Origin: Macrostomum lignano
Taxonomy: Eukaryota
NCBI GenBank assembly: GCA_002269645.1
Contig: NIVC01000110.1
Location: 124,001 to 188,000 of the forward strand
Direction: 5' to 3'
Length of the DNA: 64,000 nt
A model generated the notes under the pieces. The model worked only from the letters and a program-made list of their open reading frames with translations. It made no database searches and was not told where the DNA came from. Of this stretch, positions 53,048 to 63,602 are shown piece after piece (position 1 is the stretch's first letter; every line of letters begins with the position of its first letter). The position numbers and the translations under genes are program-made.

Positions 53048-53724
53048 ACTACTATATGAACCCGTATCCGTTGATTTTGCGAAGGTCCGTCGGGCTGATG
53101 TCGGCCTCTAGCACCGCGGCAAGGTGCTCCCTCGGGGTGTACCACCTCCCCCGGGGTGTACCTCCAGCGGGGTGGGCGTCCAGCAAGTGTACCTCCAGCG
53201 GGGTGGGCCTCCCGCGAGTGTACATCCGGCCGGGTGGGCGTCCAGCGAGTGTACCTTCAGCGCATGGGCCTCCCTCGGGGTGTACATCCGGCGGGGGGAT
53301 TCCCGCCCCTCCCACCAATGTCGTGTGCACGCGGTTAGTGTAGGAAGGAAACCCCCGATGCTGACGCAGCCCTGTACACTGAGCAACCGGCCCCCCATGC
53401 GGGGGACAGAGAGCAGCCCTGTAGCTGGGGACAGAGAGCAGCCCCTGTAGCAGGAGGGGTAGTGCGTGGAGAGCCGCCATCCCCCTGTAGCAGGGGACAG
53501 ATAACAGGCGACCCCTGTAGCAGTATGAGGTGGGGTACAAAGAGACACGGGGTGCTGGGACAGAGAGTGCGTGGAGGCACCCTGCGCTGCCCTGGCATGT
53601 CGCAGCACGCGGCGTGGACAGAGAGGGAGTGTGAGTCACACCCCCCGCGGAGAGAGCGGCCCAGTCTGGAGGCGTGGGACAGACCGGCGGCGAGTGATAG
53701 AGAGCTCCCCAGGCTGCAGAGGAC
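53048..53724. repeat. Left terminal inverted repeat
   Basis: 53048-53641 matches the reverse complement of 63009-63602 (594 bp, no mismatch seen by eye); an imperfect extension runs to about 53724. Confidence 0.95.
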
Positions 53725-53804
53725 TTGAAAAGAAAAAAACACGTATTTTAGTTGTTTCAGGTTCAGGCCATCCGGCAAACAGAGCAAAGCTCTCCAACAG
53801 TGTT

Positions 53805-54434
53805 TTATTTAGCATAAACTACGGGGTAGCGCCCCAACACATTAGCATAGTAGCGAACAGATGCGTTCTGCAAGCAATTAACAATCAAGTAGGAGTAGGG
53901 CTCCCTAGTGGCGTCTTCGTACATTTGAACAAAACTTTTTGGGTTAGCGGGGACAAGCTGCTTTGCAATATGGGCGACTGTACTAACGTCCCGTACATTG
54001 CGGAACAATACAAGGTAGTTTGCGTTAAGGGATTGAGTGCGGTGCTCCTTGCCCTTGGCAAACAGGTTTTGTACAAGGTACCAAAGCCGGAATCCCACAT
54101 GGCTGACTTTGCGAGTGAAAAATGCGGTAAAAGCAGCGTTTTTTTCCATGGCTTGCATTTGATCATCGACAACGAGTAGAATATTCGGAGCGGGAACATA
54201 GGTTTCAGGGTTAAATGTAGACGAGCGAAAATTGACAGGGTACGGTAATTCAAACAGTTCCGGGTCTGGATAGTGCCCAAACCAATCAACGCGAACAGGC
54301 TTAGGGTCCTGAAAAAACTCGTTTCGCAGCAATTCTTTAACAAGAGTTGTTTTTCCGCTCTGGTTAACACCAGCAAAAATCGCCGAAGTATTTGGAGCAA
54401 ACTTTAGAGCGTCAGGATCAATTGTTTGGTACAT
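53805..54434 (-). CDS. A32/FtsK-like DNA packaging ATPase
   Basis: Walker A GVNQSGKT, Walker B LLVVDD, and SH..LWYLVQNLF typical of Polinton ATPases. First ATG at 54434; the frame is open to 54458. Confidence 0.92.
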   Translation of the reverse strand: MYQTIDPDALKFAPNTSAIFAGVNQSGKTTLVKELLRNEFFQDPKPVRVDWFGHYPDPELFELPYPVNFRSSTFNPETYVPAPNILLVVDDQMQAMEKNAAFTAFFTRKVSHVGFRLWYLVQNLFAKGKEHRTQSLNANYLVLFRNVRDVSTVAHIAKQLVPANPKSFVQMYEDATREPYSYLIVNCLQNASVRYYANVLGRYPVVYAK

Positions 54435-54468
54435 TTTCAGGGCGAGTTGACACTCCAAATATTAAAAA

Positions 54469-54906
54469 CTATTTTATTTGTAGAACATGTTTTCGAACCA
54501 TCAAATCATTTTCAAGCAGATTGGTAGAGTAACATTCCCTTAAAATCTTTTCAATCGACAACCCCTCTAAAAAGTGCTTTTCGGCCACAAAAATCACATG
54601 CGGCCCACACGCTACACTTAGAGGGTGTTGAACAGGGTGACGATTCATAGCAACAGGTGAATGTACATGCATCGAGATCCAAGCCGAGAGCAATTCCGGC
54701 ACGGGTTCAATACACAGGGGGTCAAAAAATGTCACACTCTTATCATCGTGTAGGCAAATCAGTCCCCAGTGGGTGCCTGGCAGATTACCCGTGTCAAAAT
54801 TAATTACATATGCAGCAGGGTAAACAGGTGCAGGAATTCTGTCGAGAGGGCAAACGTGCACTTCCACAGGTAGTTTTAAACGCTCCAAAATTTCCAACGT
54901 GTTCAT
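54469..54906 (-). CDS. Adenain-like cysteine maturation protease
   Basis: GTHW, FFDP and Q..S..CG give the His-Asp-Cys triad with oxyanion Gln. Confidence 0.92.
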   Translation of the reverse strand: MNTLEILERLKLPVEVHVCPLDRIPAPVYPAAYVINFDTGNLPGTHWGLICLHDDKSVTFFDPLCIEPVPELLSAWISMHVHSPVAMNRHPVQHPLSVACGPHVIFVAEKHFLEGLSIEKILRECYSTNLLENDLMVRKHVLQIK

Positions 54907-61694: not shown

Positions 61695-62044
61695 TCCTCT
61701 GACTCGTCAGATTCGTCGAGAAAGAAATAGTGGAAGAAATTGTCGACTCTATTCTTTTCAACTGCACAAAGTATTTTGTCTGACAGGTGAAATTCGCAGT
61801 CTCCTTTTACGTACAGGCGCTTCCCGTCGATAACTTTGATAGATGCGCCGCCTCCGAGATCGTAATCTGTGCAGCTAGTGTCCAGAAATTTCATTCGATG
61901 CCATTGTGCTCGACTAAACACGGCTCCTGGACAGCTACAGTTTTGACAGTGGATGCGGAAACGCGGTTTGTTTGGGTCCCAATATCCCACTTCCAGCACT
62001 GCGTTGTCAACGTGGGTGTACACTATTTCCGATTGCCAGTACAT
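61691..62044 (-). CDS. Hypothetical protein, possible PC4-like ssDNA-binding fold
   Basis: GAVFSRAQWHRMKFLD resembles PC4 GISLNPEQWSQLKEQI; acidic C-terminus; TATAAATA lies 32 nt upstream of ATG 62044. Confidence 0.5.
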   Translation of the reverse strand: MYWQSEIVYTHVDNAVLEVGYWDPNKPRFRIHCQNCSCPGAVFSRAQWHRMKFLDTSCTDYDLGGGASIKVIDGKRLYVKGDCEFHLSDKILCAVEKNRVDNFFHYFFLDESDESEE

Positions 62045-62078
62045 TTCGATATTGTTGAGAAATACCAATTTTATTTAT

Positions 62079-62858
62079 TTATAGGCTGCCGTCTGAACAG
62101 ATTTCCAACCATTCCCTCCACTGTAGAACGGTTCTCTCAATTGATAAAAGTAAATACGCCGCTAGGAGCCCCCGGTTGCTGCTGCGCGCTTCGTAAAGAC
62201 AGTTGAGATATGTGTCTCTATTTGCATACGCAAATGATACGGGTTCTGGCAGAATCCGGTTGATCAACTTTGATAATAACAACCTAGCAGTTCTACCATT
62301 GCCGTCGCTAAAGGGGTGTATGGTGAGAAACTTTTCTAGGAAATATGCTCCTGTCACTACTGCATCACGCAAGATTTGTGGCTCTTTTATGTCTCTAGTT
62401 AATTTTACCAGCTGCCGTTCAATATTTTCTGGGGCACTGTAATACATACTCGCGCCTGCTGGCTTGGCGTGCTTAATTCTATACGATCCTGCATTCGGGA
62501 GCAGTCCTCTGCACACGCGTGTGTGAACTTGTCTAACAAACTCTGTGTCAATTAACCCCCTCGTGTCATTGAGGTGTATTGCCGCACTCCATAGATTGGC
62601 TGTGACCATACAGGACCGGGTTTTTATCGCTTCTTCTGCTTCCTCCCAAGTCAACGCCACCTCTCTCTCCTCAATGTTTACTTCAGTTACGAATGCCAGC
62701 CGGGCTAGATACGTGAATTCTAAGCGCTCCTTTGCGGTCAATCCCTCGATTCTTTTCCTAGTGTCTGATAACAATCTTTCAATGAGGGGTAATCTGGCGC
62801 GCACGCTCTCGTTGCTGAAATAGGGGTTATCAGTTATACCCTCTTCCATGTTCTCCAT
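62079..62858 (-). CDS. Fic/Doc family protein (putative AMP transferase)
   Basis: Canonical HPFSDGNGRTAR motif, preceded by V..VH..V..GL..NAGSYR and FLEKFLTIH; no signal peptide or TPR seen. ATG at 62858 or 62849. Confidence 0.92.
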   Translation of the reverse strand: MENMEEGITDNPYFSNESVRARLPLIERLLSDTRKRIEGLTAKERLEFTYLARLAFVTEVNIEEREVALTWEEAEEAIKTRSCMVTANLWSAAIHLNDTRGLIDTEFVRQVHTRVCRGLLPNAGSYRIKHAKPAGASMYYSAPENIERQLVKLTRDIKEPQILRDAVVTGAYFLEKFLTIHPFSDGNGRTARLLLSKLINRILPEPVSFAYANRDTYLNCLYEARSSNRGLLAAYLLLSIERTVLQWREWLEICSDGSL

Positions 62859-62921
62859 ACAGAGGGTTTTGTACACTGCTTCTATTTATGGTTGCATTAA
62901 CACGTTGCTCGCGGCCTGTCT

Positions 62922-63602
62922 GTCCCTCTGCAGCCTGGGGGGCTCTCTATCACTCACCGCCGGTCTGTCCCTCTACCACCCCGGCCTGGGGAAGCTCTCT
63001 GTCCCTCCGTGTGACTCACACTCCCTCTCTGTCCACGCCGCGTGCTGCGACATGCCAGGGCAGCGCAGGGTGCCTCCACGCACTCTCTGTCCCAGCACCC
63101 CGTGTCTCTTTGTACCCCACCTCATACTGCTACAGGGGTCGCCTGTTATCTGTCCCCTGCTACAGGGGGATGGCGGCTCTCCACGCACTACCCCTCCTGC
63201 TACAGGGGCTGCTCTCTGTCCCCAGCTACAGGGCTGCTCTCTGTCCCCCGCATGGGGGGCCGGTTGCTCAGTGTACAGGGCTGCGTCAGCATCGGGGGTT
63301 TCCTTCCTACACTAACCGCGTGCACACGACATTGGTGGGAGGGGCGGGAATCCCCCCGCCGGATGTACACCCCGAGGGAGGCCCATGCGCTGAAGGTACA
63401 CTCGCTGGACGCCCACCCGGCCGGATGTACACTCGCGGGAGGCCCACCCCGCTGGAGGTACACTTGCTGGACGCCCACCCCGCTGGAGGTACACCCCGGG
63501 GGAGGTGGTACACCCCGAGGGAGCACCTTGCCGCGGTGCTAGAGGCCGACATCAGCCCGACGGACCTTCGCAAAATCAACGGATACGGGTTCATATAGTA
63601 GT
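62922..63602. repeat. Right terminal inverted repeat
   Basis: Reverse complement of the left TIR; ends ...GGGTTCATATAGTAGT. Confidence 0.95.

Follow-up and report, generated by a model that had tools for sequence, protein, structure and literature searches.

A polymerase-free Polinton-type provirus in the flatworm Macrostomum lignano

Polintons are defined by a DNA polymerase together with an integrase, and the known variants swap the polymerase for another replicase. Can a Polinton-type element of an animal keep its integration and virion genes and have no replicase at all? The question is raised by a 10,555-bp element at 53048-63602 of a 64,000-nt stretch of Macrostomum lignano DNA (assembly GCA_002269645.1, contig NIVC01000110.1, positions 124,001 to 188,000, forward strand), which we call the window. 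An earlier reading, made from the sequence alone, had described it as a complete-looking Polinton-like virus with no DNA polymerase or helicase. We conclude that it is a real polymerase-free provirus of the Polinton type, that it carries a gene for a predicted single-stranded DNA-binding protein (SSB) and probably a spliced TBP-like gene, and that it belongs to a distinct flatworm-associated lineage.

Sequence comparison bore out the boundaries of the element, which is flanked by target-site duplications (TSDs) and ends in terminal inverted repeats (TIRs):

53042..53047, left TSD, 6 bp, hexamer identical to 63603-63608
53048-63602, element, 10,555 bp
53048..53722, left TIR, opens with (ACT)2 and contains 31-bp and 25-bp internal repeats
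62925..63602, right TIR, closes with (AGT)2
63603..63608, right TSD, 6 bp

The identical 6-bp duplications and the TIR cores, exact over 594 nt from the termini, are as the sequence-only reading had them; over ~680 nt with gaps the TIR pair is 96.8% identical. We took the open reading frames (ORFs) within the GC-rich TIRs to be non-coding. The ends of the element, 5'-(ACT)2...(AGT)2-3', are the inverse of the commonest vertebrate Maverick motif. This short tandem repeat falls outside the three types of terminal motif given in PMC8097293, namely (AGT)2, (AG)3 and (AC)3A; the same source has Mavericks with AC-starting ends and ties 3-nt terminal repeats to jump-back protein priming. Folding of the TIR over its first 300 nt is no better than that of shuffled sequences (z 0.37), so we do not claim a special hairpin end. 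Inside the TIRs, at 53145-53296 and 63354-63505, a 31-bp unit in which a GTGTAC core recurs is repeated 3.5 times, and there are 25-bp repeats as well; these are possible binding sites for the integrase or an origin factor. No further copy of the element was found inside the 64-kb window.

All assigned genes of the element are on the minus strand, where reading frames cover 8,606 of the 9,202 interior bases (93.5%) and the largest gap is 177 nt. The outermost genes end 66 and 82 nt from the inner TIR edges, and we saw no deletion scar. A six-frame scan of the element for pPolB motifs gave no match, and no ORF is large enough for the gene. Because the frames fill the interior, the motifs are missing and the plus-strand stop-to-stop frames are all shorter than 160 codons, we consider the absence of a polymerase and helicase to be real; the earlier claim that there is neither room for a pPolB nor a remnant of one stands. 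The six-frame motif scan found a single P-loop on the coding strand, that of the packaging ATPase; the non-coding strand has one string resembling a P-loop and two resembling HUH motifs, which we attribute to chance. No SF1 or SF3 helicase, PolA or AEP replicase was found in the element with Pfam, PHROGs or the motif scan, nor any other polymerase, primase or helicase. When 14 element proteins were searched against PHROGs, the Fic protein alone matched; there was no phage match and no Rfam match.

These results bear on one alternative, in which an autonomous Polinton family carries the SSB and TBP genes and this copy or sub-family is a deletion derivative that lost pPolB and has been moved passively. 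The lack of any pPolB remnant and the tight packing of genes against both TIRs argue against it; we return to it with the relatives of the element.

Does the element have what it needs to integrate and be packaged? The integration and virion genes are listed below from the left TIR, with identities to A0A1I8I4M6, a Macrostomum gene model described further on:

53805..54434, minus strand, A32/FtsK-type packaging ATPase, 209 aa, intact; P-loop; PF04665 in relatives; 100/100 clade
54469..54906, minus strand, adenain-like maturation protease, 145 aa, intact; Pfam C48 E 0.12 (weak)
54903..56184, minus strand, putative major capsid protein (MCP) gene in three frames; intact 427-aa relatives
56214..56558, minus strand, small basic virion-core-like protein, 114 aa; 91% to A0A1I8I4M6
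56602..57740, minus strand, minor capsid (penton, PX) gene in two overlapping frames; LPSN motif
57744..58820, minus strand, rve integrase with C-terminal chromodomain, in four frames; Pfam rve E 5e-10, Chromo E 0.04 (weak)
58998..59579, minus strand, ORF193, conserved, 193 aa; 45% to A0A1I8I4M6
59582..59971, minus strand, ORF129, 129 aa, probable virion-core precursor; no Pfam family match

The order is thus ATPase, protease, MCP, small basic core protein, penton, integrase, ORF193 and ORF129. In the ATPase search, 32 of 181 candidates matched, six at 81-84% and 26 at 34-45% identity, many of them with PF04665. A tree of 30 sequences, which omits five matches shorter than 170 aa and includes two further cluster members, groups the window protein with six relatives in a clade supported at 100/100, on a long branch. 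The protease has no match in PDB, and its residues fit what we take to be the His/Asp/Gln/Cys pattern. For the 114-aa protein and ORF129, the virion-core assignment relies on GG-type cleavage sites that we presume to be those of the maturation protease. ORF193 has no credible family in Pfam, PHROGs or NCBIfam; a DotU match (NCBIfam, E 1e-4, far below the cut-off) was treated as chance.

The MCP gene has no match in Pfam, PDB or NCBIfam, and among 2,837 longer candidates only four matched, three intact 427-aa proteins (75-80%) and one gene model. Its position, size and 75-85% conservation point to a major capsid protein, which in canonical Polintons is a double jelly-roll. At the level of motifs, the N-terminus of the penton carries the LPSN motif of the published Polinton PX alignment (PMC4028283), and one gene lies between penton and MCP, which is the usual Polinton arrangement according to the same source. 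The claim of an integrase and a full virion module holds, with the amendments that the MCP, integrase and penton genes are broken in this copy and that the MCP name is putative.

This copy is not intact, contrary to its description as complete-looking. There are six frame breaks, two in the MCP (near 55540 and 55340), three in the integrase (between ~58230 and 57950) and one in the penton (near 57100-57165). The MCP is whole in the three 427-aa relatives, and the gene model A0A1I8I4M6 reads through the region of the integrase breaks. As assembled, the copy could not make capsid or integrase from its predicted genes. We saw no in-frame stops in the broken genes and there are 0 differences between the TIR cores, where 2.5-8 would be expected under assumed substitution:indel ratios of 3-10. 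By a rough calculation, the probability of such clean TIRs is 0.44 if only indels occur at this rate and 0.08 to 0.0003 at assumed ratios of 3 to 10. Because there is no in-frame stop and the TIR cores are identical, slow neutral decay is disfavoured, and sequence-consensus error or very recent damage is the more likely cause. The penton break may be a natural split, since split pentons are given for 3 of 72 published Polintons in PMC4028283. Damage at six places is also a point in favour of a deletion derivative.

Is there a family? Two Macrostomum lignano gene models are the only relatives with a name. In A0A1I8G3E6, which is a second, near-identical copy of the element, a TIR-derived exon, ORF117 and the SSB are fused in one model and match the window at 80-95% identity; it also has an internal duplication, a tail with no match in the window and no modelled Fic exon. 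A0A1I8I4M6 keeps the order of the window at 45-92% identity (ORF171, SSB, ORF193, integrase, start of the penton, core protein, MCP), then enters a host nitrilase-family gene that is not present in the window. No polymerase motif was found in A0A1I8I4M6. Both UniProt entries bear host-enzyme names and are, for the most part, chimeric models built from this element; from them we take Macrostomum to be its host.

One SSB homolog is on a contig of 8,848 bp, suggestively near the 9.2-kb interior of the element, and contigs of 3,773 and 3,422 bp recur among the ATPase relatives and the intact MCP relatives. Prokaryotic genome contigs, scanned twice, yielded no such locus (0/78 and 0/23 candidates). 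Together, the sequence comparisons show that the family has diversified, that it retains intact capsid genes and that its accessory block is stable; pPolB is likely to have been lost from the family as a whole. The sequence-only reading had allowed that this copy might be a unique internal deletion. That prospect is weakened by A0A1I8G3E6, with the same TIR and accessory genes, and A0A1I8I4M6, with accessory genes joined to the same integrase-capsid block; as these are two further copies at other loci, they argue against a one-off deletion. The broader deletion derivative has in its favour that the gene models leave room for pPolB in other copies, and against it that the diverged copy A0A1I8I4M6 has the same accessory-to-capsid order and that an SSB homolog is on an 8,848-bp contig. 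We regard it as rather unlikely.

If no replicase is encoded, what lies where one might be expected? The right part of the element is an accessory block, which had been described as Fic, PC4-like, two unknowns and TBP-like:

60010..60484, minus strand, TBP-like frame without its own start codon, predicted second exon; Pfam, NCBIfam, PDB
60410..61090, minus strand, ORF226, 226 aa, predicted OB-fold SSB of the T7 gp2.5 / Enc34 / African swine fever virus (ASFV) CP312R type, basic tail
60484..60550, minus strand, predicted 67-nt intron in the SSB ORF; donor after residue 180, acceptor opens the TBP frame
61179..61694, minus strand, ORF171, 171 aa; 62% to A0A1I8I4M6
61691..62044, minus strand, ORF117, 117 aa, acidic tail; 95% over 57 aa to A0A1I8G3E6
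62079..62858, minus strand, Fic-domain protein, 259 aa; Pfam E 7e-14, PDB FICD E 4e-7

The Fic assignment is borne out, with the canonical catalytic motif HPFxxGNGRxxR; the TBP-like one, in a frame without an ATG, is probable, with a score just below the Pfam cut-off. No PC4 match for ORF117 was found in Pfam, PDB or NCBIfam, and its best Atlas score of 0.77 is sub-threshold and to unnamed clusters, so the PC4-like label is left without support. One of the two unknowns, ORF226, has an SSB fold by prediction. The other, ORF171, has no family in Pfam, PHROGs, PDB or NCBIfam; a weak resemblance of residues 87-163 to Arp1/actin (E 0.09) was treated as chance.

Could one of the family-less proteins make the element autonomous after all? 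ORF171, ORF117 and ORF193 are conserved without a family assignment, and one of them might be an unrecognised initiator, terminal protein or primase. With fewer than 200 aa each, the three are below the size of any known polymerase or helicase; the coding strand showed no catalytic motif, and at most these proteins could recruit host enzymes. We find autonomy quite improbable.

ORF226 has homologs in 4 of 604 candidates (46-56% identity). A search of representatives gave seven matches, four of them credible, the other three being repeat-rich proteins that were dropped; the Atlas gave no match. An AlphaFold model of the first 180 residues reached a mean predicted local distance difference test score (pLDDT) of 80.6 with 10 sequences (2 of 5 models above 75). 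Among 48,161 chains, the structures nearest to the model were ASFV CP312R (Z 9.7, root-mean-square deviation (rmsd) 4.3, 157 aligned), T7 gp2.5 (Z 8.6, rmsd 3.3, 125 aligned), Enc34 SSB (Z 7.9, rmsd 4.0, 132 aligned) and DUF2815 (Z 7.4, rmsd 3.6, 121 aligned), with the next row at Z 5.5. Foldseek agrees on a gp2.5-type fold. We are thus confident in the model of ORF226 as an SSB fold of the T7 gp2.5 type that is also found in nucleocytoplasmic large DNA viruses (NCLDVs), and predict that it binds single-stranded DNA. Given this fold, a replication accessory is present despite the missing replicase.

The fold also bears on another alternative, replication by host enzymes or by a large nuclear DNA virus, with the SSB and the TBP-like domain as adaptors taken from such a virus. 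The ORF226 model has 104 BFVD matches at E 0.001 or better, and in the best 50 of these all 40 named rows are from what we take to be NCLDVs. BFVD is without most Polinton proteins, so this match list is presumably biased. Mriyaviruses have a T7-like SSB and no polymerase and are thought to use the host polymerase (PMC11253617), which favours the alternative; they still encode an HUH initiator and a helicase according to that source, neither of which was found in the element. Linear TIR ends need priming, and no such flatworm virus was found in the full-text literature searched (subscription papers, Repbase and bioRxiv supplements lay outside its scope). Overall, we think host or large-virus replication unlikely.

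How would the TBP-like domain be made? The frame 60013-60546 scores just under the Pfam TBP cut-off (E 9.5e-5, 22.6 bits against 22.9), with only the second repeat scoring; NCBIfam TBP (E 1.3e-4) and PDB, where 17 of 19 matches are named TBP, give the same assignment. It has no usable ATG upstream and overlaps the tail of the SSB. We propose that it is probably spliced onto the SSB through the predicted 67-nt intron. The +5 position of the donor is G, forced by the residue after a conserved IKV, in 7 of 8 homologs, against a background of 13%; these homolog rows are related, one is a near-duplicate, and A0A1I8G3E6 and one other homolog are without the region. Conservation is 10-20% in the putative intron, which varies in length, against 55-60% in the SSB core and 48-57% in the tail from the acceptor on.

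Two codon-level tests give splicing no clear support. First-base substitution does not favour it (0.34 in the tail against 0.41 in the core), and the values for frame compatibility, 0.61 against 0.50, are close to those of a control frame, 0.57 against 0.49. The unspliced SSB frame is open through the tail in every full-length homolog, and because of this both spliced and unspliced SSB products may be made. For the same reason we rejected an SSB-TBP fusion through a frameshift specific to this copy. Alternatively, a programmed frameshift or a non-AUG start may produce the TBP-like domain.

The element also has promoter-like boxes:

56234..62083, minus strand, seven TATAAATA boxes, starting at 62083, 59997, 59708, 58962, 57774, 56606 and 56241

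These TATA boxes are 26-142 nt upstream of gene starts. All seven are on the coding strand and none on the other, while shuffled sequences have a mean of 0.19 and 0 of 1000 shuffles reach seven; two of the boxes include a stop codon, which inflates the count somewhat. The box contains TAAAT, which we take to be a poxvirus-type late motif and count in favour of host or large-virus replication. ACGTGA, at 60035 and 58973 on the minus strand, precedes two of the TATA boxes by 38 and 11 nt and is a possible shared upstream promoter element. The TATA boxes, likely intron and TBP-like domain would fit nuclear transcription by Pol II.

Where does the element belong? Each of its parts has a precedent, and the combination of parts was not found elsewhere; neither this combination nor any Macrostomum Polinton turned up within the literature scope given above. 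Like group 1 Maverick-Polintons, or adintoviruses (Polintoviricetes), the element has an rve integrase with chromodomain, ATPase, protease, a penton one gene from the MCP, long TIRs, a 6-bp TSD and a short terminal repeat. Unlike them it has no pPolB, its ends differ as described above, and it has a predicted intron and a length of 10.6 kb, where intact vertebrate elements are described as intronless and 12.7-24.6 kb long (PMC8097293). The canonical Polinton size is about 13-25 kb, and Table S1 of PMC4028283 includes some entries of 10-11.5 kb.

Group 2 Polintons, Tlr elements and Polinton-like viruses (PLVs) without pPolB also keep the virion module, and Tlr has an rve integrase as well, but these swap pPolB for an SF1 or SF3 helicase, PolA or AEP fusions, and we found no replacement in the element. 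DUF2738 occurs in PLVs, and Polintons are known from flatworms. Some Nematostella Polintons have an N in their names, Repbase style, which we take to mean non-autonomous. Polinton-N1_NV, N1A and N1B retain MCP, penton and ATPase as our element does, and differ in being 14-15 kb and without a protease, in a table that has no column for pPolB (PMC4028283 Table S1); such elements with capsid genes lend some support to a deletion derivative.

Other precedents are more distant. Betta adabscovirus, a DNA virus of an animal, has virion genes but none that can be discerned as a replicase, and helper or host dependence has been proposed for it; it differs in being inferred to be circular and having an adomavirus-class capsid, and an integrase goes unmentioned in its description (10.1101/2024.03.25.586562). 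Gamadviruses (mriyaviruses), and NCLDVs with T7-like SSBs, resemble the element in the gp2.5-like SSB and, for gamadviruses, in the absence of a DNA polymerase; gamadviruses differ in having genomes of 35-45 kb, an HUH endonuclease and helicase, and protist hosts (PMC11253617). MELD viruses have a TBP-like gene in a midsize linear dsDNA element (PMC8502044, Fig. 5 legend), although that figure covers PolB-bearing elements, unlike this one. In sum, the element is Polinton-like in integration and packaging and departs from canonical Polintons in lacking pPolB and in size.

How might it replicate? The sequence-only reading proposed a satellite or helper-dependent virus. A dependent, integrating, packaging-competent family is also our best reading, with the amendment that the accessory block, which includes an SSB, is not neutral in replication. 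Specifically, we propose a non-autonomous Polinton-type virus of macrostomid flatworms that is copied in trans by the terminal-protein/pPolB of another element, a tentative proposal to which we give just short of an even chance. The element entered the chromosome by Polinton-type integration, as its 6-bp TSD shows, and keeps its virion module. It would be transcribed in the nucleus from its TATA promoters with the help of its own TBP-like domain, which splicing would join to the SSB. Once excised, the linear genome would be replicated from its short terminal repeats, with the terminal-protein/pPolB coming from a helper, either an autonomous Polinton or a similar virus within the same cell. The element's own gp2.5-type SSB would coat the displaced strands. 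An SSB suits strand displacement, as is established for adenovirus and phi29. Packaging of the copies would then fall to the ATPase, capsid proteins and protease that the element itself encodes. The present copy would be disabled as assembled, probably through sequence-consensus errors or very recent damage. In published work, pPolB carries its own terminal protein (PMC11161782), and pPolB and DDE integrases are reported to occur together because both act on ends (10.64898/2026.10.13.758929).

Several points speak against copying in trans. With an end motif inverse to the common one, the element would need a helper whose ends match. It may be only the integrase for which the terminal repeats are kept. 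The nearest predicted folds of the SSB are from large DNA viruses, which fits another kind of helper as well. At the A0A1I8I4M6 and A0A1I8G3E6 loci, the gene models could have missed a pPolB that lies beyond their exons, in sequence they skip or on the opposite strand.

The rest of the window has other features. On the minus strand at 6126-10332, two long frames have matches to the DEG/ENaC family of amiloride-sensitive channels (E 3e-29 and 1e-19); they cover 1-306 and 305-455 of the profile and are separated by ~2 kb that include a tandem repeat. A mariner-type transposase frame of 385 uninterrupted codons is at 11581-12738 (plus strand) between tetranucleotide arrays that are partly mutually inverted, and an exon-like frame at 24642-25187 (plus strand) matches the AIP FKBP-type domain (E 1e-26). 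The DEG/ENaC, mariner and AIP matches mark the window as animal DNA. Tandem arrays with periods of 4 to 83 bp are very dense over 1-52778, and an 83-bp array stops 270 bp left of the element.

At least one major Polinton survey, that in PMC8097293, is anchored on pPolB next to the integrase, and polymerase-free elements would therefore be under-counted in it. On a bolder reading, the element would represent an animal virus lineage of long standing whose members carry out their own integration and packaging and never carry a replicase, which would make them true satellites, either of Polintons or of the host. Their spliced SSB-TBP fusion would couple the coating of replicating DNA to the activation of their own TATA promoters, and any survey that requires pPolB beside an integrase would by its design pass them over. 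This is possible, at somewhat less than an even chance. A family that drops the polymerase and keeps the virion module would mean that capsids are selected independently of self-replication, and a satellite tier would be added to animal Polinton biology. As Macrostomum lignano, the likely host, is a laboratory animal, the question of whether animal Polintons form particles may be approachable here by observation.

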